Virus record (IMG/VR): IMGVR_UViG_3300021399_000121 | Location: 43,502 to 107,501 of that record | From: a virus | Taxonomy: Duplodnaviria; Heunggongvirae; Uroviricota; Caudoviricetes | Length of the DNA: 64,000 bases | Reading direction: 5' to 3' (one strand) | Shown here: piece after piece, positions 11,663-30,201 of the stretch | Layout: every line of letters starts with the position of its first letter | Numbering within the stretch: position 1 is the stretch's first letter | Translations under genes and position numbers: made by a program | The notes under the pieces: model-generated | Told to the model about the DNA's origin: nothing | Database searches by the model: none | What the model saw: the letters and a program-made list of their open reading frames with translations, nothing else

Positions 11663-12337
11663 ATGGCTGATATGACTTTAAGTGATATTGCTGCTCTAAA
11701 TCATGATAATGACGGTTGGGGAGGCGGTTGCTGGTGAGTTATTGTACTCTTCGCCCTCATTTTTGGTTGGGGTAATAATGGATTTGGCAACAATGGTTTT
11801 GCTAATGCAATTGGCTATGAAAATCTTGCAACTTCTAATGAAGTACAACGTGGTTTTGATAATCAAAACAGCATGGCAAATCAGCGTGAAATCCTTGCTG
11901 CGGTTAATGCTGGTACCGCACAATCTGTTGCAACCACAAATCAGACATTCCATGATATGCTAGGTGCTCTTAGTGATAAATACATGGAACTACAGCGTGA
12001 CATTGCGGGTTTAGCAGTTGGCCAAGCCAATGCTCTTGCTAATCAAAATCAATGTTGCTGTGACACTAAGATGCTAATTCAGGAGAATGCGGCACAGCAA
12101 CGTTATGAATCTGCTATGCAGAACAATGCTGTTATTCAAGCAATTCAAGCTGAAGGTGCTGCTACTCGTGAAATGTATCAGCAAGATAAGATTGAAGCAC
12201 TACAGAATCGTGTTAATCAATTACAGCTAGATCAAGCTATGCAAGGTGTTGTACGTTATCCTAACATGTTTGCATATAATGCTGGCGCCAATCCATTCTG
12301 CGGTTGCGGTAATGGTGGTTGCTGCGGCAATATTTAA
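11663..12337 (+). CDS. Gly/Cys-rich protein with one hydrophobic segment (VIVLFALIFGWG) and a C-terminal CGCGNGGCCGN tail. It contains one in-frame TGA.
   Basis: ATG 11663 lies behind GAAAGGATGA. It is in frame with ORF 11873..12337 when TGA at about 11735 is sense. Confidence 0.4.
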
Positions 12338-13551: not shown

Positions 13552-13986
13552 ATGAATAAACGTGATTATAGATTTTTTGGATTGGCTCGTCAAGAAGCAT
13601 TGCGATCGTCTTTTGATAGATTCCATCTTGGTTGTGTAATTACTTATAAAGGTCGAGTAATTGGACGCGGCTCTAATTCAGATAAAACAGATCCATTACA
13701 AAAACGATATAACAAAGAGCGTAAATTTAATAAATGCGGCACGCAGCCTATAAAACATAGCGTTCATGCAGAAATTGCCGCACTTAAATCAATTCCTTAT
13801 CCAATCCAAGAGTCAATAGATTGGAGTAAAGTAAAGGTCTATATTTATAGAATCGCTGTTGGGAAAAAATTGCATATGGGACTTGCTCGTCCATGCGCAG
13901 GATGTATGAAAGCATTGCGAGATAAGGGCATTCAAAAAATTCTTTATACAACAAATGACGGTTTTGCATGTGAAAGGATTTTTTAA
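13552..13986 (+). CDS. Zinc-dependent cytidine/dCMP deaminase-fold protein.
   Basis: The motifs HAEIAAL and PCAGCMKAL match the H(A/C)E and PCxxC signature of the CDA fold. Confidence 0.55.
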   Translation: MNKRDYRFFGLARQEALRSSFDRFHLGCVITYKGRVIGRGSNSDKTDPLQKRYNKERKFNKCGTQPIKHSVHAEIAALKSIPYPIQESIDWSKVKVYIYRIAVGKKLHMGLARPCAGCMKALRDKGIQKILYTTNDGFACERIF

Positions 13987-14213: not shown

Positions 14214-14674
14214 TAAATTTTAGTAGACAGGTGGTATAATTACATGGTATAATATATTTATAATAAAGACCTAGACCGTATTGCTTATTTTTAAGCTAAG
14301 AAGCCAAAAGGTGATGGTTTGCCCTGGTCAGGCTGCAAATATAGGTAATGCCACTTATATTCTAAGACAATTACTATTACGAGAGCGCAGTACGGAACTT
14401 AGTCGGAGAGTGATCGGCACATGGCATTGTGTGGAAAAACGAGGGCGCTTTACCGCATGCTTCGGACTAAGGAAGTTAAAATGAGAGAGGTTCTTCAGGG
14501 TCAAAACCTTATTACTCCGCAGAGTAGACCAGCAGCTTATTGGTCATTAATAATAAAAGCCCTCTTCACTACTGCGGCTCTGGTGATGTTAAGTGCGGTT
14601 GTCCTAAGATTTTAGTGGACGACCGCATTATTTTTATGCTATAATATATTTATGAGGAAGAGAAAGGATATATT

Positions 14675-14956
14675 ATGGCAGAAGGTTATGTACTTGTAAG
14701 AGAATTTCTTGTCTCTGCTTGGGAAAATTGGGACGGGTCAGATAGTAAGTGTCAATACAAAATTATTCATACAACGACTCTGAATAAAGCTCATGCAGAA
14801 GCACTTGAGTTTGCTTTTACTATGCTTGATCCTTATATGAATGAAATTAAACATTATGCTGAGTACATGGCCGCAAATGGTTATGATTATGATGAAGTTC
14901 TTCATAATACAATGCTCAAATGTGCTCATTATGATTTGTGGGAGAAATGTCTATGA
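14675..14956 (+). CDS. Hypothetical 93-aa protein. It ends at a TGA, one of very few TGA stops in this block.
   Basis: ORF track entry; a promoter of the conserved family lies at about 14622-14650. Confidence 0.4.
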   Translation: MAEGYVLVREFLVSAWENWDGSDSKCQYKIIHTTTLNKAHAEALEFAFTMLDPYMNEIKHYAEYMAANGYDYDEVLHNTMLKCAHYDLWEKCL

Positions 14957-15384
14957 GACAGCGGAATATATATTTAGAGAAAATCAATCCTGATATTCAT
15001 AGTTATGGTATTAACTGGAAACATATGGGTTTTCATCCTGTGCGGCGAATACAGGATTTTATACAGCGCCGCAAATGTGGATATGATTATAGAATAACTT
15101 ATAATCTTGACTCTTGGATGATTGAACAACTTTATACTTGGCTTAATATGTATCTTGAAGCTAGTTATAATACTATTGATCTTGAGTATTATAAATTTAA
15201 TATTGATGGTATGGAATTAACTGAGTTAGAAGCTATTGTTTATATTATGGATAGTTTTGAACAATGGCTTGTTTACGTGGATAATATTGATAAACATACA
15301 AGTGATGAAGATTTTGCAATCCAAGAGCAAGTGAAAAAAGCGTTAAAATGTTTGAGCGAAATAATTTTTTGCCTTTGGTGGTAA
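14938..15384 (+). CDS. Hypothetical 148-aa protein.
   Basis: ORF track entry; the start overlaps the upstream gene. Confidence 0.4.
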   Translation: MGEMSMRQRNIYLEKINPDIHSYGINWKHMGFHPVRRIQDFIQRRKCGYDYRITYNLDSWMIEQLYTWLNMYLEASYNTIDLEYYKFNIDGMELTELEAIVYIMDSFEQWLVYVDNIDKHTSDEDFAIQEQVKKALKCLSEIIFCLWW

Positions 15385-15413
15385 AACAGAAAAAATTTTT
15401 TCTTTTATAGATA

Positions 15414-15455
15414 AATGCGGCTGTGGTAAGATTTTTCTTGCCAGCCGCATTTTAT
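15414..15455 (+). terminator. Rho-independent terminator hairpin.
   Basis: AATGCGGCTGTGG...CCAGCCGCATTTTATTT: a GC stem followed by a T-run. Confidence 0.55.
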
Positions 15456-15491
15456 TTATGTTATAATATATTTATAAGAGGAAGGAGAAGT

Positions 15492-15830
15492 ATGGAAAAG
15501 AATGATTATGTAATTTGTTCATGGTGTGGTGTTGATGTCATACCTGATTTTGAATATAATATTATCTATAATGTTACTCATAATGAAGCTGTGGACATAG
15601 CTAAAAAGGCATCTTTAAAGCAAAGTATTGACAAATATGCAGATTTAATTATTCAGGAGACTGAAAGAGAATTACCACTTGATCCTGCGGATGTTTATGA
15701 AACAGTTATTGATGATTTTATTCGATTTGAAGTATGGAAAATTGATTCTAATATTTCAAAAGAAGCATGGGATGAATTTGATTTTGGCCCTGACACTTTT
15801 TGTAATCGTTATTGTGAACGAGTAGCATAA
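15492..15830 (+). CDS. Hypothetical protein. The start was moved to the ATG behind AGGAAGGAGAAGT.
   Basis: ORF 15423..15830 in the same frame; RBS and promoter at about 15455-15480. Confidence 0.45.
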   Translation: MEKNDYVICSWCGVDVIPDFEYNIIYNVTHNEAVDIAKKASLKQSIDKYADLIIQETERELPLDPADVYETVIDDFIRFEVWKIDSNISKEAWDEFDFGPDTFCNRYCERVA

Positions 15831-16026: not shown

Positions 16027-16953
16027 ATGACTAACTGTTTTAAACCTTACCTCCATGTTGAAAGATTGGGAAAAACAGAAGTTGATAATATTCTTTGTGG
16101 TACTGTAAGACTTACAGCAAAACTTGATGGTACTAATGCATCTGTGTGGGCAGACGAAGATGGTCGTATGCGTTATGGCAGTCGTAAACGTGAAATTTCT
16201 ATTGAAGATGATAATGCTGGTTTTGCCGCATGGATGAAATCTGATGCAGAAGAAGCTGCTCTCCTTATTCGTTTTTGTCAAGCTAATCCTCATATGATTG
16301 TTTATGGCGAATGGGGTGTATCTAAAGTAGGTGCAATTAAAAAGTATACTAAGGAAGCTATAAATAAACTTTGGATTTTTGATATTTATTCTCGTGAAGA
16401 AGAACGCTATCTCACTTGGGATGAATTCAATGCCGCACTTATTATGTATGATCTAATTGACTATCGAGTGAAGCTTCTGGCTACTTTGACTAACCCAACA
16501 CTTGAGGATATTATTAAGGTTGCAAATGAAAATACTTTCCTTCTTGAAGGAACTGACACTCTTGGAGAAGGTGTTGTAATTCGTAGAGACAATTATACAA
16601 ATTGCTATGGACGTTATGCTGTAGCAAAATATGTGCGGGAAGACTTTAGACCTGATACTCCAAGAGTAAAGAGAATTGTTCAGGCTGGCGAGATTGAACA
16701 AGATTTTATTAATCGTTATCTAACCCAATCTGAACTTGAGAAAGCTAAAGCTAAAACTGCTCTGGCTTGCGGTGAAGAATATGTTCCTGGTAATGGCAAG
16801 TTTATTGGTATGTTTCTTAATCTGCTCTGGAAAGATACTCTTGAAGAGAATATTGTAGATTTTTGTAAGCGTGCTAAGAATCCTCGAATTGATTTTGCCG
16901 CACTTAATGGTTTGATTAAAGCAGAAGGCCGCAAGTTCTTAGGGTTGATGTAA
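16027..16953 (+). CDS. ATP-dependent polynucleotide ligase of the Rnl2-like nucleotidyltransferase family.
   Basis: Motif I AKLDGTN (KxDGxN), motif III LWIFDIY, motif IV LGEGVVIRR and motif V YAVAKYV are all present. The length, 308 aa, is close to that of T4 Rnl2. Confidence 0.55.
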   Translation: MTNCFKPYLHVERLGKTEVDNILCGTVRLTAKLDGTNASVWADEDGRMRYGSRKREISIEDDNAGFAAWMKSDAEEAALLIRFCQANPHMIVYGEWGVSKVGAIKKYTKEAINKLWIFDIYSREEERYLTWDEFNAALIMYDLIDYRVKLLATLTNPTLEDIIKVANENTFLLEGTDTLGEGVVIRRDNYTNCYGRYAVAKYVREDFRPDTPRVKRIVQAGEIEQDFINRYLTQSELEKAKAKTALACGEEYVPGNGKFIGMFLNLLWKDTLEENIVDFCKRAKNPRIDFAALNGLIKAEGRKFLGLM

Positions 16954-16954
16954 T

Positions 16955-17236
16955 ATGAAGAAAATTTTATTTTCTCTTTTGGGTATTGTATTATGTTTTA
17001 GTGTGTGTGGCTGTGCTGGTTCAAAATTAGAAGCACATACTTCTAATGGCAAATCTTTGGAACACGATAGATTTAGAGTGATTGAAGGAGATTATGGCTC
17101 TGAAGCTATTATAGTTGACACTGAAACAGGTGTTGAATATTTATGGATTACTCCAGCTTATCGTAAAGCAGGATTAACTGTACTTGTTGACCATGATGGT
17201 AAACCATTAATCGCCCCAGGGTATAAGGATTCTTAA
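16955..17236 (+). CDS. Small lipoprotein.
   Basis: Signal peptide MKKILFSLLGIVLCFSVCGC with a lipobox-like FSVC. Confidence 0.45.
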   Translation: MKKILFSLLGIVLCFSVCGCAGSKLEAHTSNGKSLEHDRFRVIEGDYGSEAIIVDTETGVEYLWITPAYRKAGLTVLVDHDGKPLIAPGYKDS

Positions 17237-17362
17237 TGGATATATATAAAGTAGTATATGATGATGATCTTTGTTATCATTATGTATCATGGTTTTTTGA
17301 TTTGGATACTGCTAAAAAGTGGTGTAAGATAAATAACCATAATTGGATGCGATGGCATATAT

Positions 17363-17695
17363 ATGATAAGAGAGGACATGAAAAACATGGTGGATGTAAT
17401 GGACCATCTTACTTTGGAACGTAAAGAAATTCCTGTATATGTAGAAAATCTTTATAAATGGACACCGAAACCTGCTATATTAAAACGGGATATTTGCTGG
17501 GACATTCCAGTTTTAGAAGAGTTAGATTGTCCTTATTGTGGCAATAAAGATGGCGTTGATCTTTATTATGATAAAGATATATTTATTTATGTTGATCCAA
17601 AGGGATATCTGCGGTTTGGTACTCCTGATGGTGTAGGTAAAACTGAAATTCAGTTTTGTCCTATGTGTGGTAGACAATTAATAGGTGATAACTAA
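17363..17695 (+). CDS. Zinc-ribbon protein (CPYCG ... CPMCG).
   Basis: ORF track entry; two CxxC pairs. Confidence 0.4.
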   Translation: MIREDMKNMVDVMDHLTLERKEIPVYVENLYKWTPKPAILKRDICWDIPVLEELDCPYCGNKDGVDLYYDKDIFIYVDPKGYLRFGTPDGVGKTEIQFCPMCGRQLIGDN

Positions 17696-17985
17696 TGTGT
17701 GATATTGATAAAATATGGCCTAGTTATGAAGATGGCAGTAAAGTCCATGTTGGTGATTATATTTACTTTGAAAAAGAAGATACTGTTGGTTTAGTTACCG
17801 CTATTAGTTTTACAAAAAATAGTTTTCAAAAATATGTTGTCGATATAGATTATGAATGTAAAGGTCATTGGCATTGTGTCTATAAGACTTATGAAGAAAA
17901 ATATGTATATAAAGATGTTTCAGAAGTACCTGCTTATGCTGATGTTTTAGCACTACATAATTTTAAACGACCTCCTATGAAATAA
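17695..17985 (+). CDS. Hypothetical 96-aa protein.
   Basis: ORF track entry; start overlaps the upstream stop. Confidence 0.4.
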   Translation: MCDIDKIWPSYEDGSKVHVGDYIYFEKEDTVGLVTAISFTKNSFQKYVVDIDYECKGHWHCVYKTYEEKYVYKDVSEVPAYADVLALHNFKRPPMK

Positions 17986-18002
17986 TTATTGTTCTTATAA
18001 TA

Positions 18003-18030
18003 AGGTAGCTCTTGTCAGCTACCTTATTTT
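18003..18030 (+). terminator. Rho-independent terminator.
   Basis: GGTAGCTCTTGTCAGCTACC followed by TTATTTTTAT. Confidence 0.5.
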
Positions 18031-18067
18031 TATGTTATAATATTTTTATAAGGAAAGGGGAAATAGT

Positions 18068-18238
18068 ATGTCCAAAAAGAAGTATCATGGGTCTATTACT
18101 ATTGACCCTAAAATTATTTGGAATGCACAAAAGCCGCATTATAATGGTTGGATGTGCGGACATGGTGCGCATGGAAAAAACAAGTATAGCCGCAAACAAA
18201 AATATAAAACTGATTGGAGAAATTATGACCGAGATTAA
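18068..18238 (+). CDS. Small basic 56-aa protein.
   Basis: A conserved promoter at about 18030-18055 and the RBS AAGGGGAAATAGT precede ATG 18068. The ORF track instead shows a different out-of-frame start at 18012. Confidence 0.4.
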   Translation: MSKKKYHGSITIDPKIIWNAQKPHYNGWMCGHGAHGKNKYSRKQKYKTDWRNYDRD

Positions 18239-18581
18239 TCTTCTTGAAGAGACTGAGCGTGCTTTAATTTCTCATTATAAAACTTGGGATGATATTGCCT
18301 GGATTGGTGGGTATGATTTTTATATTAGTGTTGAACAATTTAAAGAAGCCGCAAAAGATACTAATTATGATGCTGGGTACGGTAGTGAAGAAGTTGCAAT
18401 AGATTTAGTTATTTGTTTTTATAATGGATCATGGCTATCTCGTGGATCTTATGATGGAAGTGAGTGGTGGGAATATAACGAATTTCCATCTAAGCCGCGA
18501 ACAAAATTTGAGGGTAGTGTTAAGTTAGCTGATCCTTGTGGGTACGATGCTTGGGAAGGTTTAAAGGGACTTAATAAATAA
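18224..18581 (+). CDS. Hypothetical protein (MTEINLLEE...).
   Basis: Internal ATG of ORF 18012..18581; overlaps the upstream gene in the ATGA arrangement. Confidence 0.4.
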
Positions 18582-18590
18582 GGAGTAATC

Positions 18591-19868
18591 ATGTCTTGGA
18601 ATCCTGTTTTAAATATGTTCATTGAAATAAAGAATGAATTTATTAAGGAGTGCGGCAAGGATGCTTTGTGGCAGTATGGCCGCGAGGATTCCTTTACTAA
18701 TTGTCTTTCCTATTGGGTGTGGACTCTTGGAAATCATGGTCATCCTAAGCGTCATTATTATTCTAAGGTGATTGAGCCTTTGCTTCTCAATGAGAGTATG
18801 GGTATGTTGCTTATTAAGTATAATGATCTTGGCATTGATTGGAATGCTTATGATGGTTTCTATCGTGAATGTCGGTCTGTTGTAATCGATGTACTTAATG
18901 ATTGTTTGGTTCTTACTCCTTTCCGTAAATTCTTTAATATTAATGAGCTTGAAGAAACTCAACTTCATGTTGTCCAAGAGAAGATAGATAATGCATCTAG
19001 GATAGAAATTACTGACAAGATTGATGGAAGTATGTGCGGTGCTCGTTGGTATCGCAAGGATCTTGTTATGTCTGGTTCTCAAGCTCTTGATATTAGTAAA
19101 TCTTATCGTTTGGAAAATTACTATCATTGGATGCATCAGCATGAAAATGCAGTACAAATGCTCAAAGATTATGATAATTTCACTTTTATTTTTGAAGGAG
19201 TTTTTCCTGATGATGTCCATATAGTACAGTATGACGAACAAATGTTCGGCTTGCATCTTCTTGGAATGCGGCGAGTAGAGGATGGCGTAGAATTACCTTA
19301 TAAGGATGTTGTAGAAATTGCAGAAAAGTATGATGTGCCGCATGTCAAAATTTTTGATATGACTTTTGAAGAGGCTTATCAGGATGCCCTTAATGATGGT
19401 CGTAAGGCCAATGAGGGCGAAGGGTATGTCATTGACATAGATGGTCAGAAGTATAAGCTCAAGTATAATGATTATGTTATGCTTCATCATGCTCTTTGTA
19501 AGATGGTTTCTCCTAATGCTATAATTGCAGCTATCCGTGAAGGCCGTTGGGATGATTTCTATTCAAAGATTCCTGTTGCATATCAACCGCAAGCTAAGGA
19601 AAAGGCTGATAATGTTTATAAATACGTACAAATGTTCGATGAACGTGTTATAAAGTGGTATAACCTCACTCGTGATTTTGTAGATTATACTAACGATCGC
19701 AAGACCTTTATGATTGCTGTTGATAAAGTTGTACCTAAGCAATATCAAGGGTCGGTACGTGCTAAGTTCTTAGGTCAAAAAATCGATTATTTCCGTGGTG
19801 TTAAGTACGGAGATATGATTGATTATATCGAGTTAATGCAGACTTTAACTTTAAATATTAAGGCTTGA
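18591..19868 (+). CDS. Second nucleotidyltransferase ligase, Rnl1-like. It ends at a TGA.
   Basis: Motif I KIDGSM (compare T4 Rnl1 KEDGSL), motif IV EGYVIDIDG and motif V KLKYNDYV. Confidence 0.45.
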   Translation: MSWNPVLNMFIEIKNEFIKECGKDALWQYGREDSFTNCLSYWVWTLGNHGHPKRHYYSKVIEPLLLNESMGMLLIKYNDLGIDWNAYDGFYRECRSVVIDVLNDCLVLTPFRKFFNINELEETQLHVVQEKIDNASRIEITDKIDGSMCGARWYRKDLVMSGSQALDISKSYRLENYYHWMHQHENAVQMLKDYDNFTFIFEGVFPDDVHIVQYDEQMFGLHLLGMRRVEDGVELPYKDVVEIAEKYDVPHVKIFDMTFEEAYQDALNDGRKANEGEGYVIDIDGQKYKLKYNDYVMLHHALCKMVSPNAIIAAIREGRWDDFYSKIPVAYQPQAKEKADNVYKYVQMFDERVIKWYNLTRDFVDYTNDRKTFMIAVDKVVPKQYQGSVRAKFLGQKIDYFRGVKYGDMIDYIELMQTLTLNIKA

Positions 19869-19937
19869 GAATGAAATTCTTTATTGACACCTGCATGTTA
19901 AATATGCTATAATATTATTATAAGAAAGGAGAGATAT

Positions 19938-20432
19938 ATGACTCAATGTGATGAAGCTATCCGTCGTCAGTTGCGTAAGCCTACTGTGTATATTATGTGC
20001 GGCGTGCCTGGTTCTGGCAAGACATATTTTTGTAAGAACGTATTGATGGATCATCCTTGGCGTAGTCGAGTCTATATCTCTTCTGATGATATTCGTGAAG
20101 AGCTTTATGGTGATGCTAGTAATCAATCTCTTAATGGTATCGTTTTTGATATTTTTTATGAGCGTGCTCGTGAAGCTATCAAAAATGGTAGTGACGTAAT
20201 TCTTGATGCAACGCATCTGACTAAGAAATCTCGTCGCAAATGCCGCAATCATTTTAAAGATTTGGATTGTAAGTTTATTGTGGTTCAGATGAATACATCG
20301 ATATTGGATGCGGTTTATCGTAATAAGAAACGTGACAGGGTTGTCCCTGCTGATGCGATGAATCGCATGATTGAAGTATATCAGCCTGTTGAAGATAGCG
20401 AAGGTTTTGATTATATCTGGAAGGTAGATTAA
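19938..20432 (+). CDS. P-loop polynucleotide-kinase-like protein.
   Basis: Walker A GVPGSGKT lies near the N-terminus of a 164-aa protein. It is adjacent to a phosphoesterase and two ligases. Confidence 0.5.
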   Translation: MTQCDEAIRRQLRKPTVYIMCGVPGSGKTYFCKNVLMDHPWRSRVYISSDDIREELYGDASNQSLNGIVFDIFYERAREAIKNGSDVILDATHLTKKSRRKCRNHFKDLDCKFIVVQMNTSILDAVYRNKKRDRVVPADAMNRMIEVYQPVEDSEGFDYIWKVD

Positions 20433-20992
20433 TGATTTATCTAAGCTCAGATTTACATTTTGGACATGACCGTGGTTTTATCTATGAGCCGCGAGGATTT
20501 TCTAGTATCCAGGAGCATGATGAAGCAATCATTGAAAGATTTAATAGCGTTGTGCGGCCTGATGATGATCTCTATCTCTTGGGTGATCAAATGCTTGGTG
20601 ATAATGAACATGGTTTAGATTGTTTGCTACGGCTTAATGGTAAACTTCATATTCTTTGGGGTAACCATTGTACTAATGTGCGTAAAGAATTATATTATAC
20701 TCTTTCTAATGTTGTAGAGACTCTTGGATATGCGGGAATACTTAAATATAAAAAGTGGAGGTTTTATCTTTCGCATTATCCTACTATTACGGATAACCTT
20801 AATGATGTGTCTAAGCCTTGGGAACAAGTAAAATGTCTTTATGGACATACTCATCAAAAGACTAATTTCTATAGTGATAATCCTTTGCTTTATCATGTAG
20901 GCGTGGATAGTCATAATTGTTATCCTGTAAGTATTGATCAAATCATTGAAAATATTCAAGCTAAGTTTTTAGAATGTAAACAGATGCTTTAA
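20432..20992 (+). CDS. Calcineurin-like metallophosphoesterase.
   Basis: Motifs DLHFGHD, LGDQ and GNHC are present. The start overlaps the upstream stop. Confidence 0.6.
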   Translation: MIYLSSDLHFGHDRGFIYEPRGFSSIQEHDEAIIERFNSVVRPDDDLYLLGDQMLGDNEHGLDCLLRLNGKLHILWGNHCTNVRKELYYTLSNVVETLGYAGILKYKKWRFYLSHYPTITDNLNDVSKPWEQVKCLYGHTHQKTNFYSDNPLLYHVGVDSHNCYPVSIDQIIENIQAKFLECKQML

Positions 20993-21128: not shown

Positions 21129-21159
21129 TTGACAATTGAAAAGAAAATATGATATAATA
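21129..21159 (+). promoter_or_regulatory. Strong sigma70 promoter firing into the 1.4-kb ORF-free block upstream of the tRNA array.
   Basis: TTGACA at 21129-21134 and TATGATATAAT ending at 21159. Confidence 0.55.
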
Positions 21160-21165
21160 AATATG

Positions 21166-22600
21166 TAAGGTTGAGAGAGTTAATAAGGTGCTTCTAAAGA
21201 AGAAACACAATATTAGGTTTCTTAACCTAATAACCTTGAAAACAGAATAGTTGAAGATTTAGGTGCAACTCAGTGCAGAGCGGTGTCAACGTGCTGAGGG
21301 TTCTTCTCAATGAGTTGAGACTCCTGAAGGATACTTCCGCAGTCAAGCTTTAAGGTGAATCGTGAGGTTTACTTTAGAAGGTAGGAACTACCAACAAAAT
21401 GAAGAATGCGCTTAGTCTATTTGCTAAGGAAAGATACTTGTAAATTGTCGTCTCCGCAATAGACGCCCCAGTGGGGAAGAATCCAGAACACTTATTAACA
21501 GGTGGTGCTGAATAAGAAAAAGCTGGAAATACCAATAAGGAGATTGAGCTGTTGACTCTCTGGTAACAGAGGGAATAAGACAAGGGCAAGGTTCGAGTAG
21601 CACAAAGCAGCTCCTTATATTAATGAATATTAGGAGAATATATTAATGCTGAAAGACGTGTGAAAGTTGTGGGTAATCATTCCTACGGTAGAGATGGCCT
21701 TAACGGCTGGGGTAAGAAGTATGACGGTCGCTCCGATATACTCAGCCTTATCTCCTACATGATCGAATATCCAGTAAATAGATGCGGTACAGTGAAGACT
21801 GGCATGTATATCTTCAACTATTCTGTTTGAAGGAATTGACGTAATAGTTCGTTCGCGTCATTAAATAAAACGGCATCCTGGTTAGGCAGGTTTATAAAAG
21901 AGAGTAGCCTAACATGCTCTCTAGTGTGATTTAGTGTATACAGAGTAAGGCTTTTTATTGCTGATTGGCCCGCTGCGTACTTCTTGACATGGTTAAAAAC
22001 CGCAGAAAAGAATTCAGCAACCCGGAAGATTGGTCTAAGACTGTGCTAGGAAAAGGCTAAAAAGACTAGTTACGTAACTGGTATGCGGACACCGCTCGGT
22101 AGAGAAAGTCCGCAACGTAGCTTAAAGGGCTGAGATAACTGCTAAACAGTTTATGCCTTAGAGGGCATTTATAAAAAATGCTTTCTTAGGTATATTTAAT
22201 GCCAGTGTAGTGAGAATCGACTACACTATAAAATAAAATCATGATTCTCTGGTTTTGAAATCACCTGAACCAAAAAGAATTTCTGTTTTTATGTGTTTGA
22301 ACGAAATCAAGTACATCCCGCGCAAGATAGGGTGATGATCTTGCCGCAAGTCTATGCGTAAAGTAAAGATCGCTTGTAGGTTAAGAGCGTCAGAACCTTC
22401 TGTAGTTTATACTTTCTCTACGATAAGGGTGGTGCCTATGAAAGTATCTTCTCTTGGAGGATATACCTATATATCTAAAAATCATATCAGCCATAACGGG
22501 TATATCTTCCAAAAGGAGTAATCCTATTGTCGTTGCGAGCATGCCGATAAGACGTTAAACTATTTCGTATGCGGTGGTCGTGTTACACCTTACCCAACAC
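21166..22600 (+). ncRNA. Candidate large structured ncRNA of the GOLLD/ROOL class by genomic context.
   Basis: About 1.4 kb with no ORF longer than about 70 aa in six frames. GC is about 45-50%. A consensus promoter lies directly upstream and the 17-tRNA array directly downstream. Confidence 0.35.
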
Positions 22601-22609
22601 TTTTATTTT

Positions 22610-22685
22610 GGCCTTGTAGTTAAGTTGGTTATAATAATTGTCTTGTAAACAATAGTCCTCAGTTCGAATCTGTGCGAGGCCTCCA
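22610..22685 (+). tRNA. tRNA-Thr (anticodon TGT).
   Basis: Cloverleaf folded by hand: acceptor GGCCTTG/CGAGGCC, anticodon loop CTTGTAA, T-loop TTCGAAT, CCA encoded. Confidence 0.6.
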
Positions 22686-22688
22686 TAC

Positions 22689-22763
22689 CGGGCGTTAGTG
22701 AAGCGGTTATCACAATGGTCTGTCTAACCATTATCACGGGTTCGATTCCCGTACGCCTGGCCA
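22689..22763 (+). tRNA. tRNA-Asp (anticodon GTC); tentative.
   Basis: D-stem GTGA/TCAC, anticodon stem ATGGT/ACCAT with loop CTGTCTA, T-arm ACGGGTTCGATTCCCGT, CCA encoded. Confidence 0.45.
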
Positions 22764-22766
22764 TAT

Positions 22767-22853
22767 GCCGAAGTCGCATAGTCTGGTCAATTGCATCGCG
22801 CTGTAAACGCGACGGCTCGTCCTGCGGGAGTTCAAATCTCTCCTTCGGCACCA
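22767..22853 (+). tRNA. tRNA-Tyr (anticodon GTA), type II with a long variable arm.
   Basis: Acceptor GCCGAAG/CTTCGGC, anticodon loop CTGTAAA, long variable arm, CCA encoded. Confidence 0.6.
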
Positions 22854-22862
22854 GTTAATTAC

Positions 22863-22940
22863 ACCCCAGTAGCTCAGTCTGAAAAGAGCATTGCGCTACG
22901 GACGCAAGTGTCGTGGGTTTGAATCCTACCTGGGGTGCCA
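22863..22940 (+). tRNA. tRNA-Arg (anticodon ACG).
   Basis: Acceptor ACCCCAG/CTGGGGT (7 bp), D-arm TAGCTCAGT, loop CTACGGA, CCA encoded. Confidence 0.6.
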
Positions 22941-22949
22941 ATAATCAAT

Positions 22950-23024
22950 GGGAGTCTAGCTGAGATGGATTAGCAAGGGTCTGAAAAGCCCTGGAGGAGG
23001 GATCGTTACCTTCGGCTCCCACCA
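22950..23024 (+). tRNA. tRNA-Phe (anticodon GAA) with an atypical T-loop, ATCGTTA.
   Basis: Acceptor GGGAGTC/GGCTCCC, anticodon stem AGGGT/GCCCT with loop CTGAAAA, CCA encoded. Confidence 0.5.
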
Positions 23025-23025
23025 T

Positions 23026-23100
23026 GCGGGGTTAGCTCAATGGTGGAGCAGAGGACTCATAATCCTTTGGCTGTAGGTTCAAATCCTACACTCCGCACCA
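23026..23100 (+). tRNA. tRNA-Met/fMet (anticodon CAT).
   Basis: Acceptor GCGGGGT/ACTCCGC, loop CTCATAA, T-loop TTCAAAT, CCA encoded. Confidence 0.6.
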
Positions 23101-23103
23101 AAT

Positions 23104-23180
23104 GCGCTTGTAGCAGAATTGGCATATGCACCGGACTCAAAATCCGGGATTTGTGAGTTCGACTCTCACCAGGCGCACCA
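23104..23180 (+). tRNA. tRNA with a tRNA-Trp-like body but anticodon loop CUCAAAA (nominal anticodon CAA) on a type I scaffold. It is a candidate recoding tRNA.
   Basis: Its anticodon stem CCGGA/TCCGG and T-arm GTGAGTTCGACTCTCAC closely resemble bacterial tRNA-Trp. A CAA anticodon on a short-variable-arm tRNA is anomalous. CCA is encoded. Confidence 0.45.
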
Positions 23181-23183
23181 AAT

Positions 23184-23264
23184 GCCCTTGTGGTGGAATT
23201 GGAAGACACGCGTGCCTTAGGAGCACGTGCTTAGGCGTGGGGGTTCGAATCCCTCCAGGGGCAG
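23184..23264 (+). tRNA. tRNA-Leu (anticodon TAG), type II.
   Basis: Acceptor GCCCTTG/CAGGGGC, anticodon stem CGTGC/GCACG with loop CTTAGGA, long variable arm. Confidence 0.55.
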
Positions 23265-23325
23265 TTGCGAGAATCAGAAACCTCCACGTGGTTCGCAATG
23301 GTTAACACTAATATCTGATATTTAT

Positions 23326-23396
23326 TGGCGATTAGTTCAATAGTAGAACTCGGGCCTTTGGCACCCGTAACGGGGGAGCGTTACCTCCATCGCCAG
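23326..23396 (+). tRNA. tRNA-Gln (anticodon TTG). Position 1 is U, as in bacterial tRNA-Gln.
   Basis: Acceptor TGGCGAT/ATCGCCA, loop CTTTGGC, atypical T-loop AGCGTTA. Confidence 0.5.
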
Positions 23397-23398
23397 CC

Positions 23399-23473
23399 CG
23401 TTCCTTAGTATAAAAGTTATTACAGACGCCTGATAAGCGTCAGAACCAGGAGCGTTACCTGGAGGAACGACCA
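23399..23473 (+). tRNA. tRNA-Ile (anticodon GAT).
   Basis: Acceptor CGTTCCT/AGGAACG, anticodon stem GACGC/GCGTC with loop CTGATAA, T-stem CCAGG/CCTGG, CCA encoded. Confidence 0.55.
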
Positions 23474-23475
23474 AT

Positions 23476-23552
23476 GTCGGCATCGTCTAGTTGGACTAGG
23501 ACACTACCCTTTCAAGGTAGAAACGCGGGATCGTAGCCCGCTGCTGATACCA
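23476..23552 (+). tRNA. tRNA-Glu (anticodon TTC).
   Basis: Anticodon stem CTACC/GGTAG with loop CTTTCAA, T-arm GCGGGATCGTAGCCCGC, CCA encoded. Confidence 0.5.
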
Positions 23553-23869
23553 TAGACACTACCTCCAAAAGTGATGATACTTTTATGTGCGGAGGTCATG
23601 AACCGCACATCCAGTAAAATCATGGATGGACTAATGAGCATAGCGGTGTTAGATGCATGGTTCTGATCATGACAGAGACGGTGGTGATGCTTGTGTAGCT
23701 ATCACCCTATGCGACCATAAAGAGAAAAGAATATAATATGATAGAAAAAATTAAAAATTGAATTACAAAAAGAAAATATCATCACGTTTTAACATGCGGT
23801 GCAGCTTCAATTATTATAAAAAATTAGTTGACTCCTGTTCAATATTTATGATATAATATATTTATAAGG

Positions 23870-24073
23870 TTGAGAGGAGATAATATGGCTGATAAGAAAG
23901 TTGTTCATCGTATTTATCATCCTAAAGGATGGGTTGTGCGGACTTACTCAACTAACAAGCAAGCTAAAGCTTTTATTGAGGGTATTAATTTCAATATTCC
24001 CTCTTGGCATTATGATGAACTTTATAAGATGCGGGCGGAGGTAACGGATAGTGACGAAATCTGCTATGCTTAA
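23870..24073 (+). CDS. Small protein encoded inside the tRNA array (MADKKVVHRIYHPKGW...).
   Basis: Conserved promoter at 23822-23860 and RBS GGAGATAAT. Confidence 0.4.
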   Translation: MRGDNMADKKVVHRIYHPKGWVVRTYSTNKQAKAFIEGINFNIPSWHYDELYKMRAEVTDSDEICYA

Positions 24074-24257
24074 AAAATATATTGTTTGTGAAGAATGCAT
24101 TGATGGAAAATGGGGATTTTATTCTATTCGTATGAATACTGATTGTAGTCCTTCACGTTTTATTATAGTTGCAAGTTTTGATACGTATGAAGAAGCAAAT
24201 GAATACATAGATTATTTATTGCATCCAGAAGATTATTTTAATCATGATGATGATTAG
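24051..24257 (+). CDS. Small hypothetical 68-aa protein.
   Basis: ORF track entry; overlaps the upstream gene. Confidence 0.35.
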   Translation: MTKSAMLKKYIVCEECIDGKWGFYSIRMNTDCSPSRFIIVASFDTYEEANEYIDYLLHPEDYFNHDDD

Positions 24258-24266
24258 CACCTTGTG

Positions 24267-24338
24267 ACGCGGGGTAGAGTACTGGTAACTCAACGTCCTC
24301 ATAAGTCGTGATATACGCGTTCGAATCGCGTCCCCGCG
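24267..24338 (+). tRNA. Second CAT-anticodon tRNA, either an elongator Met or a lysidine-modified Ile2.
   Basis: Acceptor CGCGGGG/CCCCGCG (perfect 7 bp), D-stem GAGT/ACTC, loop CTCATAA, T-arm ACGCGTTCGAATCGCGT. Confidence 0.55.
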
Positions 24339-24471
24339 ACACAGGGTAGCTGCATACCTGTTCGATAAAGTTCAAAAAGATAGCAGAGAGATGAAGGGTG
24401 AAACCGGATAATAGATACAATGTCTGAACTACTAAAGTATCTTTCTCTCTTAAAATTTTATTCCCGGTTCG

Positions 24472-24535
24472 TTCAACGGCAGGACGCGACACTGTTAATG
24501 TCGTTATACTGGTTCGAATCCAGTACTGGGAGCCA
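24472..24535 (+). tRNA. tRNA-Asn (anticodon GTT).
   Basis: Acceptor TCCCGGT/ACTGGGA, anticodon stem CGACA/TGTCG with loop CTGTTAA, T-arm ACTGGTTCGAATCCAGT, CCA encoded. Confidence 0.55.
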
Positions 24536-24538
24536 TAT

Positions 24539-24802
24539 TCGCTCGTGACGCAGCTGGTAGCGTAGTGGACTTTCGATTGGAAGCCTTATAAGGAAACTTA
24601 TAAGTGAACAGCTCGCTAAATCGGTGAAACCTTTAAAATGGTAATACCGAGCAAGGGAAACCGTGTGTAGAGACTTTACACGAGCCACCTAAGTTTTATA
24701 ATATGGTGAAGATAAAGTCCAGACCACAAACAGAAATGGCTATGAAAATAGTAGTGGTATGTAATCCATTAGTCGCGGGTTCGAATCCCGCCGGGCGAAC
24801 CA
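24539..24802 (+). tRNA. Candidate split tRNA with an anticodon-loop intron. The 5' half is at 24539-24572 and the 3' half at 24765-24802, separated by about 190 nt.
   Basis: The acceptor TCGCTCG pairs 7/7 with CGGGCGA across 250 nt. The 5' half has a canonical D-arm (ACGC AGCTGGTA GCGT) and the 5' strand of an anticodon stem, GTGGA. The 3' half has the partner strand TCCAT, T-arm GCGGGTTCGAATCCCGC and an encoded ACCA. One possible splice restores the loop CUUUUAA (Lys-UUU); another restores CUUGUAA (Thr). Confidence 0.35.
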
Positions 24803-24804
24803 AT

Positions 24805-24880
24805 ACCGAGTTAGCTTAATTGGCAAAGCGCGACACTCTTAATGTCGGAGATGTGGGATCGTGGCCCATGCTCGGTACCA
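24805..24880 (+). tRNA. tRNA-Lys (anticodon CTT).
   Basis: Acceptor ACCGAGT/GCTCGGT, D-stem GCTT/AAGC, anticodon stem CGACA/TGTCG with loop CTCTTAA, CCA encoded. Confidence 0.55.
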
Positions 24881-24890
24881 AATAACAAAT

Positions 24891-24967
24891 ACCCGTGTCG
24901 TATAAATGGAAGTATAGCTTGACTCCAAATCAAGAAGGCGTCTGTTCGATTCGGACTGCGGGTGCCA
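24891..24967 (+). tRNA. tRNA-Trp (anticodon CCA).
   Basis: Acceptor ACCCGTG/TGCGGGT, anticodon stem CTTGA/TCAAG with loop CTCCAAA, T-arm GTCTGTTCGATTCGGAC, CCA encoded. The D-stem appears to pair U11-A24. Confidence 0.55.
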
Positions 24968-24975
24968 TATAATAA

Positions 24976-25051
24976 GCCGCATTAGCTCAAGAGGAAGAGC
25001 CGTAGTCTTCTAAACTACTTGTTATAGGTTCGAGTCCTATATGCGGCGCCA
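24976..25051 (+). tRNA. tRNA-Arg (anticodon TCT).
   Basis: Acceptor GCCGCAT/ATGCGGC, D-arm TAGCTCAAGAGGAAGAGC, loop CTTCTAA, CCA encoded. Confidence 0.6.
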
Positions 25052-25064
25052 GTTAATTATAAAC

Positions 25065-25154
25065 GGAAGATTGGCCGAGTCTGGATTATGGCGCCTGCCT
25101 CGAAAGCAGGTGTACCGCTAGGTACCGTGGGTTCAAATCCTACATCTTCCGCCA
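25065..25154 (+). tRNA. tRNA-Ser (anticodon CGA), type II.
   Basis: Acceptor GGAAGAT/ATCTTCC, anticodon stem CCTGC/GCAGG with loop CTCGAAA, long variable arm, CCA encoded. Confidence 0.55.
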
Positions 25155-25261
25155 TTTTTTTCTTTTTTATAATCAATTCTGCCAAATAACAAAAAATTAT
25201 AATCATTTGTGATATAATTTTATATATAATAGAAAAGATATTATTGCAGGAAGGAGAGATT

Positions 25262-30197: not shown

Positions 30198-30201
30198 ATA
30201 T

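Follow-up and report, generated by a model that had tools for sequence, protein, structure and literature searches.

The closest described counterparts of the locus analysed here are RNA repair systems of phages and bacteria. Phage T4 encodes Pnkp, in which a 5'-kinase is fused to a 3'-phosphatase domain of the DxDxT (HAD) type, together with the RNA ligases Rnl1 and Rnl2. In the bacterial Pnkp/Hen1 and Pnkp1-Rnl-Hen1 systems (Clostridium thermocellum, Capnocytophaga gingivalis), 3' ends are healed by a metallophosphoesterase and sealed by an Rnl4 ligase, which in Pnkp1-Rnl-Hen1 sits on its own protein; the 2',3'-phosphatase of bacterial Pnkp is supplied by the lambda-phosphatase clade. According to Iyer et al. 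2021 (PMC7824862), jumbo and other tRNA-rich phages possess Rnl1, Rnl2 and RtcB in various combinations, together with polynucleotide kinases, phosphoesterases (calcineurin-like or HD in a minority), RlaP, TROVE and many tRNAs; in tRNA-rich phages, the kinases, phosphoesterases, RlaP and TROVE track the RNA ligases. There, such sets are interpreted as countering defences that cleave tRNAs (PMC7824862; Burroughs & Aravind 2016 cited therein). The Rnl5 family (Naegleria gruberi and Deinococcus radiodurans RNA ligase), whose enzymes seal nicks, is defined by its N-terminal domain and has no C-terminal appendage (PMC4408790).

The window, that is, the whole 64-kb stretch of DNA analysed here, belongs to a phage of gut or rumen Firmicutes of ~136-141 kb, which is below the jumbo range. 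In what is probably its early, host-promoter-driven region, four ORFs on the + strand encode two RNA ligases, a kinase and a metallophosphoesterase (MPE) (Table 1). All four were found where an earlier note had placed them, Pfam and PHROG profile searches agree with the families it had guessed, and all four enzymes keep their catalytic residues intact. Our preferred reading, held with moderate confidence, is that the cluster is a phage RNA break-repair module consisting of a split Pnkp and two RNA ligases, possibly with an RlaP-like helper. The kinase would phosphorylate 5'-OH ends and the MPE would take off 2',3'-cyclic or 3'-phosphates, so that the pair would make up the split Pnkp. Broken single-stranded loops, for example anticodon loops, would then be rejoined by the Rnl1-family ligase, nicks in duplex RNA would be sealed by the PF09414 ligase in the manner of Rnl2 and Rnl5 enzymes, and the borderline RlaP-like nucleotidyltransferase may restore excised nucleotides.

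Table 1 Features of the repair gene cluster and its surroundings in the window.
Feature	Position	Strand	Details
PF09414 RNA ligase	16027-16953	+	308 aa; Pfam PF09414, PHROG 548
Rnl1-family RNA ligase	18591-19868	+	425 aa; PF09511, PHROG 562
Putative consensus extended -10 promoter	19884-19913	+	TTGACA, 18 nt, TG-n-TATAAT; heads the kinase-MPE two-gene unit
P-loop kinase, polynucleotide 5'-kinase type	19938-20432	+	164 aa; PF13671 AAA_33, PHROG 505
Small binuclear metallophosphoesterase (MPE)	20432-20992	+	186 aa; PF12850 Metallophos_2, PHROG 547
ROOL RNA	21245-21821	+	Rfam RF03087; own consensus promoter 21129-21158; between repair genes and tRNA array
Main tRNA array	22610-25154	+	16 tRNAs (ARAGORN) and one Rfam-only tRNA
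RlaP-like nucleotidyltransferase, borderline	33210-34055	+	PF10127 RlaP, PHROG 388
HAD-type ORF	54278-54724	-	DxDGT motif at start

The locus shares with T4 a 5'-kinase, a predicted 3'-phosphoesterase and an Rnl1-family ligase working by the same logic, another ligase from the nick-sealing Rnl2/Rnl5 superfamily, and the combination of phage-encoded repair enzymes with tRNA genes in one genome. In contrast to T4 Pnkp, the kinase is a separate protein and the phosphatase domain of the HAD type is replaced by a binuclear metallophosphoesterase. Similarly, whereas 3'-end healing by a metallophosphoesterase (a predicted role in the window) and a ligase on its own protein recall the bacterial systems, kinase and phosphoesterase are encoded by separate, overlapping genes, the ligases are of the Rnl1 and PF09414 types, and the surroundings of the cluster showed no Hen1 methyltransferase. 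The window, with its borderline RlaP, and the relative L010, with TROVE, fit the jumbo and tRNA-rich phage sets described in PMC7824862. In our view, the cluster adds one more case to the RNA break-repair kits of T4 and other large phages, and it does so with a kinase-phosphoesterase pair that is uncharacterised yet very widespread.

Two RNA ligases of different families

The PF09414 ligase, an ATP-dependent type, matched Pfam RNA_ligase (E = 7.8e-19) and PHROG 548 (E = 1e-33). Its N-terminal nucleotidyltransferase domain carries a KLDG motif with the lysine nucleophile K32, and the AF2 model (pLDDT 89) places a four-helix domain at the C-terminus (residues ~222-304). Motifs I, Ia, III, IIIa, IV and V, including K32, D34, S52/R53, G94-E95, F118-D119, E181-G182 and K201, are invariant in a 25-sequence alignment of the family. 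The earlier note had called this ligase Rnl2-like, which holds for its two-domain architecture and for the Foldseek ranking of its model, where full-length T4 Rnl2 came first (E = 4e-11). By sequence, however, the PDB entry nearest to the nucleotidyltransferase domain in profile searches was the Rnl5 enzyme NgrRnl (E = 3e-10), which superposes on the model with a TM-score of 0.51 (rmsd = 4.0 Å, ~220 columns), while hhalign against T4 Rnl2 gave 91% probability confined to residues 5-143. The protein is therefore not an orthologue of T4 Rnl2 and forms a separate phage clade with Rnl2-like architecture; compared with Rnl5, its domain layout is the opposite.

The second ligase, described as Rnl1-like in the earlier note, proved to be just that. 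It matched PF09511 RNA_lig_T4_1 (E = 7e-20), PHROG 562 (E = 4e-40) and, by phmmer, T4 Rnl1 2c5u (E = 3e-9), and its score against TIGR02308 (E = 1e-15) was far below the NCBIfam equivalog cut-off (57.5 vs 242 bits). The nucleotidyltransferase core, with a KIDG motif at K143, lies between an N-terminal helical region and an all-helical C-terminal domain. Counterparts of T4 Rnl1 R54, K75, F77, K99, D101, G102, E159, E227, G228, K240 and K242 are invariant, so that all essential residues of T4 Rnl1 are kept. In Foldseek, the AF2 model (pLDDT 90) was matched best by T4 Rnl1 (388 columns, E = 1.5e-14) and next by the ligase domains of fungal Trl1. The overall fold is that of T4 Rnl1, from which the protein differs by an extra N-terminal helical region of ~85 aa.

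Neither ligase belongs to the DNA-ligase or capping families, because both C-terminal domains are all-helical and an OB fold is absent, and the relatives of the kinase are the CthPnkp kinase, PSTK and Pnkp1 rather than an unrelated NTPase; the assignments named beforehand as fatal to the repair reading were thus not what the searches returned. The suggestion that two distinct ligase families are unusual has to be dropped, since T4 itself has Rnl1 as well as Rnl2 (rnlB was confirmed in genome NC_000866) and reviews describe any combination. Rnl2 is carried by 1353 phage records, and two ligase families within one phage are ordinary. Here, they presumably divide the labour between loop breaks and duplex nicks.

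A coupled kinase and metallophosphoesterase

The P-loop protein predicted at this locus has polynucleotide and tRNA kinases as its best relatives. It matched AAA_33 (E = 1.7e-21) and PHROG 505 'polynucleotide kinase' (E = 3e-21), in the PDB it is nearest to the CthPnkp kinase domain 4gp7 (E = 7e-8), PSTK and Pnkp1, and NCBIfam returned PSTK (E = 8e-13) and the bacterial Pnkp kinase domain (E = 4.7e-10). The P-loop G22-x4-G27-K28-T, S-x-D50-x-x-R53, D90-A-T92 and R-N129 are kept across nine lineages, and the D-x-x-R motif is common to CthPnk, Pnkp1 and PSTK, which are RNA-repair or tRNA kinases. Upstream, a consensus scan and reading of the sequence identified a 12/12 match to a promoter that probably drives the kinase-MPE unit; similar promoters are found at 15438, 18012, 21001 and 21129.

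The MPE is of the binuclear type, and its metal-ligand motifs D7-x-H9, G-D52, G-N78-H79, H115 and G-H139-x-H141 are all invariant within the family. It matched Metallophos_2 (E = 1e-6) and PHROG 547 'phosphoesterase' (E = 4.6e-42). A profile search of the PDB retrieved aq_1665 (1xm7, E = 2.6e-18), with the phosphodiesterases GpdQ and YfcE as the only other solved relatives and without a match to lambda-phosphatase or CthPnkp. In contrast to the lambda-phosphatase-type domain of CthPnkp, the MPE belongs to the uncharacterised aq_1665 clade. We infer that it is a 3'-end healing enzyme for 2',3'-cyclic phosphate or 3'-phosphate. The healing-and-sealing kit envisaged in the earlier note fits the profile, structure and synteny evidence; that the MPE acts as a 2',3'-phosphatase is a prediction. 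A larger second phosphoesterase (PF00149) usually accompanies the cassette in other loci and may be the enzyme that really removes RNA 3'-phosphates; the window lacks it.

The kinase stop and MPE start codons overlap by one base (TAATG at 20430-20434), and the MPE is translationally coupled to the kinase. Both genes abut in L006, L064-L068 and L070, and they are adjacent in 14 of the 17 related genome loci selected by their MPE. Furthermore, AAA_33-Metallophos_2 fusion proteins form five independent clusters at 50% identity, in which the order, N-terminal kinase and C-terminal phosphoesterase, is that of T4 Pnkp. Together, the overlap, the adjacency and the fusions indicate that kinase and MPE are a Pnkp-like unit. 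In Bacillus phage KLEB27-3, a related kinase is fused to another phosphohydrolase (AAA_33-HD protein). The cassette is abundant, with ~10,900 representative hits at E ≤ 1e-3; the available part of PMC7824862 does not single out a coupled stand-alone kinase and aq_1665-type MPE, its abundance or its fusions.

Recurrence and neighbours of the module

The repair gene set recurs, rearranged, in divergent lineages. The order is kinase-MPE-ROOL ... ligase-ligase in L006, MPE, kinase, ligase, TROVE, Rnl1 in L010, and ligase ... kinase-MPE-tRNAs in L064, while in Vibrio phage VPT02 an Rnl1-like ligase is followed by kinase-MPE. The PF09414-type ligases of L006 and L010 are 53% and 42% identical to that of the window, and the small MPE of L064 is 63% identical. 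Because the families recur jointly in these four relatives, their clustering, pointed out in the earlier note, is more than chance. In several phages (L065-L068, L094), no RNA ligase was found within 6-8 kb of the pair, a soft count because each ligase profile is specific to its clade, and the ligase that Pfam annotates in L064 escaped them.

The MPE gene ends 1.6 kb before the first tRNA. ARAGORN detected 18 tRNAs, including Cys and Ser at 30118-30294, and Rfam supplies a 19th (23326-23396; Gln-UUG, anticodon read by eye), in line with the 19 or more announced. The array tRNAs are candidate beneficiaries or substrates of repair, and the module would serve to counter ribotoxins; the adjacency could also arise simply because early auxiliary genes are grouped together.

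The earlier note had overlooked a ROOL RNA located between the cluster and the tRNAs. ROOL RNAs are large, ornate and non-coding, and they assemble into nanocages. The copy is full length (model positions 1-574 of 574; 331 bits vs a gathering score of 99.1). L006 shares the order kinase, MPE, ROOL, which 47 other ROOL loci lack; ROOL is a physical neighbour of the repair genes in a lineage-specific association.

The RlaP-like product is a possible fifth repair component. It fell just short of the PF10127 cut-off (22.8 vs 23 bits, E = 8.3e-5), matched PHROG 388 'nucleotidyltransferase' (E = 2.7e-16) and found no match in a PDB sequence search; RlaP restores nucleotides lost from damaged RNA 3' ends (PMC12776372). 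The ORF proposed as a HAD phosphatase is present with its DxDGT motif, but it lies 33 kb away on the opposite strand. It gave no Pfam match and only weak ones to HAD-IIIC and a 5'-3' deoxyribonucleotidase PHROG, and we rejected it as a Pnkp phosphatase, since the family it matches is of the deoxyribonucleotidase type; its product looks like a nucleotidase.

Alternative roles of the enzymes

T4 Pnkp and eukaryotic PNKP can clean DNA nick ends, and there is a minor but real chance that the pair is a general polynucleotide end-healing unit serving mainly DNA repair or replication, which cleans 5'-OH and 3'-phosphate nicks for DNA ligase, with the RNA-ligase proximity incidental or reflecting dual use. 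This rival is live because elsewhere the pair adjoins DNA-replication or NAD-salvage genes: the fusion P0437 (L094), present on six contigs of ~114 kb, stands first in a gene cluster with gyrase B, gyrase A and NAD-dependent DNA ligase, the L067 cassette lies 4 kb upstream of gyrase, and one member of the family carries a fused TatD nuclease domain. Rnl2-/Rnl5-type ligases can also join an RNA 3'-OH to a DNA 5'-phosphate (PMC4408790). However, the cassette lies 0.1-10 kb from RNA ligases in the window, L006, L010, L064 and VPT02, adjoins tRNAs in the window and L064, and has RNA-acting kinases as the top curated matches of its kinase; RNA is probably the substrate rather than DNA. It is doubtful, in turn, that the pair acts on small molecules in counter-defence (NAD/ADP-ribose derivatives, cyclic nucleotide signals, nucleoside phosphorylation), leaving RNA repair to the ligases alone. 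NAMPT, NAD synthase, NADAR, Macro, SIR2, PARG and PRPP-kinase genes surround the cassette in L065-L068, NAMPT and PRPP kinase follow it in VPT02, and in Staphylococcus phage JD007 both lie ~3-4 kb downstream of a small MPE without kinase. The relationship of the MPE to GpdQ and YfcE is consistent with such a role, as are calcineurin-like phosphodiesterases such as T5 A1, predicted by Iyer et al. (PMC7824862) to degrade nucleotide signals. Yet the same authors connect NAD and ADP-ribose enzymes with RNA repair, and the kinase retains the D-x-x-R polynucleotide-kinase signature, is matched better by CthPnk, Pnkp and PSTK than by nucleoside or NRK kinases, and precedes the phosphoesterase in fusions as in T4 Pnkp.

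It is very improbable that, instead of repairing damage, the enzymes serve to process RNAs of the phage itself, whether by maturing the ends of ROOL, circularising or maintaining it, or by acting on downstream tRNA precursors. Neither a function nor a protein partner is known for ROOL (PMC12286853), none of the papers searched mentions it together with 'RNA ligase', and the kinase, MPE, ROOL order is kept in the window and L006 though the ligase genes switched sides. Nevertheless, most cassette loci are without ROOL, and the kinase, the small MPE and these ligases occur in the flanks of none of the 47 independent ROOL loci, 37 of which extend upstream by 1.5 kb or more. The window and L006, moreover, come from related phages, as their ligase identity indicates, so the shared order may simply be inherited.

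Two RNA ligases of different families

The four open reading frames that an earlier note had read as an RNA-repair toolkit beside a tRNA array all lie on the plus strand, with boundaries exactly as claimed: two RNA ligases (ORF1 and an Rnl1-like enzyme), followed by a kinase and a small metallophosphoesterase (MPE). The small ORFs between the two ligases gave no RNA-related signal in Pfam or PHROGs and encode DUF6440 lipoprotein-like, zinc-ribbon and PHROG 3972 proteins. Megablast of the cluster against 50,697 phage genomes returned no nucleotide-level relatives. ARAGORN called 18 tRNAs between 22610 and 30294, and Rfam added a 19th at 23326-23396 (+; 42 bits) that ARAGORN did not call, so that the claimed count of "19+" was right; read by eye, the added tRNA is Gln-UUG, and its anticodon stem starts from a mismatched C31·A39 pair at the base.

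Repair genes and ROOL RNA of the window, and the larger PF00149 MPE of related loci
Feature	Position	Strand	Description
RNA ligase ORF1	16027-16953	+	308 aa; PF09414 RNA_ligase, E = 7.8e-19; PHROG 548 "RNA ligase"
Rnl1-like ligase	18591-19868	+	425 aa; PF09511 RNA_lig_T4_1, E = 7e-20; PHROG 562 "RNA ligase and tail fiber protein attachment catalyst"
Kinase	19938-20432	+	164 aa; PF13671 AAA_33, E = 1.7e-21; PHROG 505 "polynucleotide kinase"
Small MPE	20432-20992	+	186 aa; PF12850 Metallophos_2, E = 1e-6; PHROG 547 "phosphoesterase"
ROOL RNA	21245-21821	+	RF03087, 331 bits vs gathering 99.1; model positions 1-574 of 574
Larger PF00149 MPE	L006 7836-8615; L010 3981-4724; L065 4480-5217; L067 4325-5032		in L006 just after ROOL
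Larger PF00149 MPE	L068 4513-5232; L070 3967-4707; many of L072-L087		

The second ligase aligned with T4 Rnl1 structures at E = 3e-9 (phmmer; 2c5u aligned). Across 24 members of its family, K143-x-D145-G146, E202, E277-G278 and K289-x-K291 (motifs I, III, IV and V) are invariant and align to T4 K99, D101, G102, E159, E227-G228 and K240/K242, while R95, K113 and F114/F115, which align to T4 R54, K75 and F77 in the phmmer alignment with 2c5u, are invariant or nearly so. All of these T4 residues are reportedly essential in T4 Rnl1, according to mutagenesis by the Shuman laboratory. AlphaFold predicted (pLDDT 90) an N-terminal helical region, a nucleotidyltransferase core and an all-helical C-terminal region (residues 293-424); in T4 Rnl1 the all-helical C-terminal domain confers tRNA specificity. 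Foldseek ranked T4 Rnl1 (375 residues) first for this model (E = 1.5e-14 over 388 columns), followed by the ligase domains of the fungal tRNA ligase Trl1. The global rmsd was high (~13 Å), and the C-terminal domains are thus only putatively equivalent. The phmmer match, the conserved essential residues and the structural comparison thus identify the protein as a member of the Rnl1 family, and its PF09511 score exceeds gathering (72.3 vs 28.3). It is not an orthologue-level match to T4 RnlA, since the NCBIfam model TIGR02308 scored 57.5 bits over model positions 43-334 of 373, far under its equivalog cut-off of 242.25. Among cultured phages, Bacillus phage vB_BauM_KLEB27-3 has the nearest relative, gp190 (37% identity).

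The description of ORF1 as "Rnl2-like" is favoured by its two-domain architecture and Foldseek ranking, but not by its sequence grouping. The ORF1 model (pLDDT 89) places a nucleotidyltransferase domain at the very N terminus, followed by a four-helix C-terminal domain of ~100 aa. Foldseek retrieved full-length T4 Rnl2 first (E = 4e-11, 341 columns, rmsd ~15 Å) and then the Naegleria Rnl5 ligase NgrRnl, over the nucleotidyltransferase domain only. Within that N-terminal domain, K32-x-D34-G, S52-R53, G94-E95, F118-D119, E181-G182 and K201 (motifs I-V) are invariant in the family. At the sequence level, phmmer with ORF1 found no direct match in the PDB, and a profile of 25 homologues matched NgrRnl at E = 3e-10, again over the nucleotidyltransferase domain alone; T4 Rnl2 was absent from the PDB matches at E ≤ 1 in both the phmmer and the hmmsearch profile searches. 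When the family profile was aligned by hhalign with T4 Rnl2 (a sequence 100% identical to rnlB of the T4 record), the match had 91% probability over residues 5-143 only, starting at residue 5 vs T4 residue 2. In the absence of sequence-level grouping, ORF1 was rejected as a T4 Rnl2 orthologue. By the published definition, Rnl5 has its defining N-domain without a C-terminal appendage and Rnl2 has a signature C-domain (PMC4408790); ORF1, whose K32 lies only 32 residues from the N terminus and which carries the helical C-terminal domain, is therefore not an Rnl5 member either. Its tblastn matches were to "RNA ligases" from phages of Staphylococcus, Listeria, Bacillus and Mycobacterium rather than from T4-like phages, and ORF1 belongs to the separate clade common to these phages while resembling Rnl2 in architecture.

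The DNA ligase or capping-enzyme assignment that the earlier note had named as the contrary outcome did not arise for either ligase, because both models lack an OB fold and have all-helical C-terminal regions; Foldseek ranked DNA ligases below every RNA ligase family for both. The claim that two ligase families in one phage are unusual was wrong. T4 encodes Pnkp, Rnl1 and Rnl2, and Rnl2 alone occurs in 1353 phage records. For large phages, Iyer et al. (PMC7824862) describe any combination of Rnl1, Rnl2 and RtcB, together with RlaP, TROVE and many tRNAs. They give the ligases' companions as polynucleotide kinases and phosphoesterases, the latter usually HAD and in a few cases calcineurin-like or HD, and read the set as a counter to host attack on the translation apparatus. 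Compared with T4 and this description, the predicted RNA-repair kit of the window is thus of an already known kind, one that is among the few known phage counter-measures against host tRNA-cutting defences. Modestly new are the defined kinase/MPE cassette, with an MPE of the Aquifex aq_1665 type, its abundance and fusions, and its juxtaposition in one clade with the large ornate non-coding RNA ROOL.

The kinase and small metallophosphoesterase as a unit

Among solved structures, the kinase is most closely related to the Pnkp kinase domain from Clostridium thermocellum (CthPnkp; E = 7e-8), archaeal PSTK (5.6e-5) and Pnkp1 of Pnkp1-Rnl-Hen1 (5e-4). NCBIfam returned PSTK (8e-13), the bacterial Pnkp kinase domain (4.7e-10) and PNK-3'Pase, all under their equivalog cut-offs. 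The protein contains a P-loop, D50-x-x-R53, D90-A-T92 and R-N129, with D50 and R53 aligning to CthPnk D38 and R41. In the T4 Pnk/CthPnk clade, D-x-x-R provides the Asp general base and the Arg for binding of the 5'-OH nucleoside, and lid arginines are also expected. All nine independent lineages compared have G22, G27, K28, R53, T92 and N129; D50 and D90 are each kept in eight of the nine. Its predicted activity as a polynucleotide 5'-kinase is supported at the level of sequence. In contrast to T4-type Pnkp, the kinase is an unfused single domain of 164 aa, and its partner is an MPE rather than a DxDxT (HAD) 3'-phosphatase. The ORF at 54278 that the earlier note had counted in the kit, the sole HAD-like one, was rejected as the 3'-phosphatase: it has no Pfam match, gave only weak nucleotidase-type and HAD-IIIC matches, and lies 33 kb away on the opposite strand.

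The metal ligands of the small MPE (D7, H9, D52, N78, H79, H115, H139 and H141, in the five motifs D-x-H, G-D, G-N-H, H and G-H-x-H) are invariant in nine lineages, and the protein passes the PF12850 gathering score (29.3 vs 27). Its family profile matched aq_1665 at E = 2.6e-18 and gave weak matches to GpdQ and YfcE; neither the CthPnkp phosphatase nor lambda phosphatase, the 3'-end-healing type of bacterial Pnkp, was matched. A literature search on aq_1665 found nothing relevant. Whereas bacterial Pnkp, which has Hen1 as its partner, joins kinase, lambda-phosphatase-like and Rnl4 modules in one polypeptide, the kinase and MPE of the window are separate genes and the MPE falls outside the lambda-phosphatase clade.

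The two genes are nevertheless tightly linked. In the window the kinase stop and MPE start codons share one base (TAATG), and an AAA_33 kinase gene abuts the small MPE in the compared loci L006, L064, L065/L066, L067 and L068 and in Vibrio phage VPT02. When bacterial-genome contigs were scanned with a six-sequence MPE alignment, so that loci were selected by MPE alone, the kinase abutted it in 14 of 17 and lay 1.3 kb upstream in one more. AAA_33-Metallophos_2 fusions of 341-348 aa, in the same order, form five separate clusters among the best 150 representatives from a 1.84-billion-protein library; one such fusion, P0437 (347 aa), is found on six contigs of ~114 kb. Among cultured phages, a concatenated kinase and MPE query found no place with at least 80% coverage, and only VPT02 spanned both halves. 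The overlap, the abutting genes across lineages and the fusions show that the small MPE works with the kinase, the pair forming a Pnkp-like unit built on a different phosphoesterase. Overlapping, abutting or fused in many lineages, with thousands of homologues listed as "hypothetical" or "phosphohydrolase" in public records, the pair offers a clearly delimited candidate for another chemistry of 3'-end healing, which would be the third beside the HAD enzyme of T4 and the lambda-phosphatase type of bacterial Pnkp.

Kinase relatives are also fused to other phosphohydrolases. One example is gp186 of KLEB27-3 (L001, 11555-12550), annotated "polynucleotide kinase", which consists of an AAA_33 kinase and an HD phosphohydrolase domain; besides an Rnl1-like ligase, its region encodes a nucleotidyltransferase, a CCA-adding enzyme and two metallophosphoesterases. 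A small-MPE homologue, P0381 (502 aa), carries a C-terminal TatD nuclease domain.

The substrate of the cassette and the ROOL RNA

RNA would be the substrate of the cassette in the window, an assignment made from the neighbouring genes. By the same kind of evidence, the cassette may instead be a general polynucleotide unit that heals DNA ends: in L094 (8001-15788) the gene for the fused P0437 comes first in a cluster with those for gyrase B, gyrase A and NAD-dependent DNA ligase, an arrangement that hints at a DNA-end role in some phages, gyrase also follows the cassette in L067, and one family member is fused to the TatD nuclease. The cassette may also act on small molecules, as in L065-L068 its neighbours serve NAD salvage and ADP-ribose processing and no ligase was seen within 6 kb, although such absences are soft, since our own ligase profiles missed the Pfam-annotated ligase of L064 and iterative widening over fetched loci added nothing. 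These neighbourhoods and the TatD fusion keep a DNA or small-molecule role viable alongside RNA repair, and its neighbours from DNA replication and NAD salvage in other phages turn the choice between RNA and DNA into a concrete, testable question.

Genes for NAMPT, PRPP kinase, NAD synthase, NADAR, Macro, SIR2 and PARG are often found beside the cassette, in L065-L068 and also in L070 (8067-10982) and L069 (10949-13344). In Staphylococcus phage JD007 the small MPE stands alone beside genes of this NAD-salvage/ADP-ribose-processing type.

ROOL is a phage and prophage RNA, often near tRNA islands, that forms nanocages and has no known function or protein partner (PMC5737381, PMC12286853). In the window it has a consensus promoter of its own at 21129-21158 (TTGACA-18-TATAAT) and is flanked by the MPE gene on one side and the tRNA array on the other. 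The order kinase-MPE-ROOL recurs in L006 (6034-7720), a relative with an ORF1-type ligase. ROOL had no blastn match among 50,697 phage genomes, and a literature search found no paper mentioning ROOL together with "RNA ligase". Two conserved-block DNA patterns, run over viral contigs, picked out 52 candidate ROOL loci, in which nhmmer confirmed the RNA; 47 were independent of the window's clade. A tRNA lay within 1.5 kb in 24 of the 47, and none had the kinase, the small MPE or either ligase in its flanks, with at least 1.5 kb of upstream sequence present in 37. A general association of ROOL with repair genes was therefore rejected, and the link between ROOL and the cassette is specific to this phage lineage. 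It is very improbable, in our estimate, that the kinase and aq_1665-type MPE constitute a very widespread, so far uncharacterised Pnkp-like end-healing class that in this lineage is wired directly upstream of ROOL because ROOL is a substrate, scaffold or compartment for tRNA or RNA repair. If this were true, it would give ROOL a function and the first proteins to partner it. As a neighbour of the cassette, the RNA presents a specific but long-shot lead to what it does.

Between ROOL and the first tRNA, ~790 nt (21822-22609, +) contain no convincing ORF and no Rfam match. L002 and L003 share this conserved stretch, although whole blocks are inserted or deleted, and its 3' 320 nt fold only modestly better than shuffled sequences (z = -1.86). 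Additional small RNAs, or a leader of the tRNA transcript, may lie here.

Relatives, host and genomic setting

The four-gene grouping is conserved in rearranged form. In L006, whose ORF1-type ligase is 53% identical, the kinase, MPE and ROOL are followed by a larger PF00149 phosphoesterase, a tRNA and then both ligases side by side. In the second such relative, L010 (42% identical), the order is PF00149 phosphoesterase, kinase, PF09414 ligase, TROVE (Ro60-like) and Rnl1-like ligase. In L064 the cassette is preceded at a distance of 3 kb by a PF09414 ligase and followed by tRNAs, and in T5-like VPT02 it comes directly after a Ser/Thr-phosphatase-type MPE and a divergent Rnl1-like ligase.

The larger PF00149 MPE (235-263 aa), which the VPT02 annotation lists as a Ser/Thr phosphatase, repeatedly precedes the cassette by 0.1-2 kb and is also present 1-3 kb downstream of ROOL in L017, L040 and L055; none is encoded anywhere in the 64-kb window.

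Near-consensus extended -10 promoters with 18-nt spacers and TG before the -10 element were found on the plus strand at 13498, 14224, 15438, 18012, 19884, 21001 and 21129, and the series would split the region into short early transcription units. Between the tRNA blocks lie genes for a Gram-positive pilin-like protein with SpaA and Cna-B-type domains (25244-27016, +) and a CDP-glycerol glycerophosphotransferase (27445-28413, +), which suggests cell-surface modification in a Gram-positive host. Together with the promoters and the MAG bins, which are Clostridia and Bacilli from gut, rumen and caecum, these teichoic-acid and pilin-like genes point to a Gram-positive host. An identical Rnl1-like ligase is encoded on a contig of ~135.5 kb, which points to a virulent-type phage of ~136-141 kb. 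So read, the locus shows RNA repair in an uncultured clade of ~136-141 kb phages of gut or rumen Firmicutes.

Two further genes of the window lie on either side of the cluster. The 144-aa product of 13552-13986 (+) has a cytidine/deoxycytidylate-deaminase fold with HAE and PCxxC motifs; PHROGs assign it as dCMP deaminase and NCBIfam gave no match. A role as a tRNA A34 deaminase is conceivable because the phage also encodes tRNA-Arg(ACG), the substrate of bacterial TadA. Downstream of the cluster by 12 kb, ORF 33210-34055 (+) encodes a 281-aa Pol-beta-type nucleotidyltransferase (PHROG 388 "nucleotidyltransferase", E = 2.7e-16) that scored 22.8 bits against the RlaP family PF10127, whose cut-off is 23 (E = 8.3e-5, model positions 7-143 of 249). 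Damaged RNA 3' ends are extended by RlaP, which co-travels with RNA ligases, by one or two nucleotides (PMC12776372), and the ORF is a possible additional RNA-repair component.

Related contigs hold other RNA-associated genes. In L010, a relative of ~142 kb, the TROVE gene (14323-15777) immediately precedes that of the Rnl1-like ligase. L064, a phage-like contig of ~167 kb, carries a 99-nt CUA-anticodon tRNA at 11677-11775, called "tRNA-Pyl" by ARAGORN and possibly an amber-suppressor tRNA; a non-coding RNA in the gap after its cassette was rejected, as an uncalled 347-aa ORF fills the gap and Rfam gave no match. A tmRNA gene is present at 19228-19547 of L008, a related phage contig, and in L006 (18088-19198) an RT-18 RNA motif lies directly upstream of a reverse transcriptase (RVT_1) gene.
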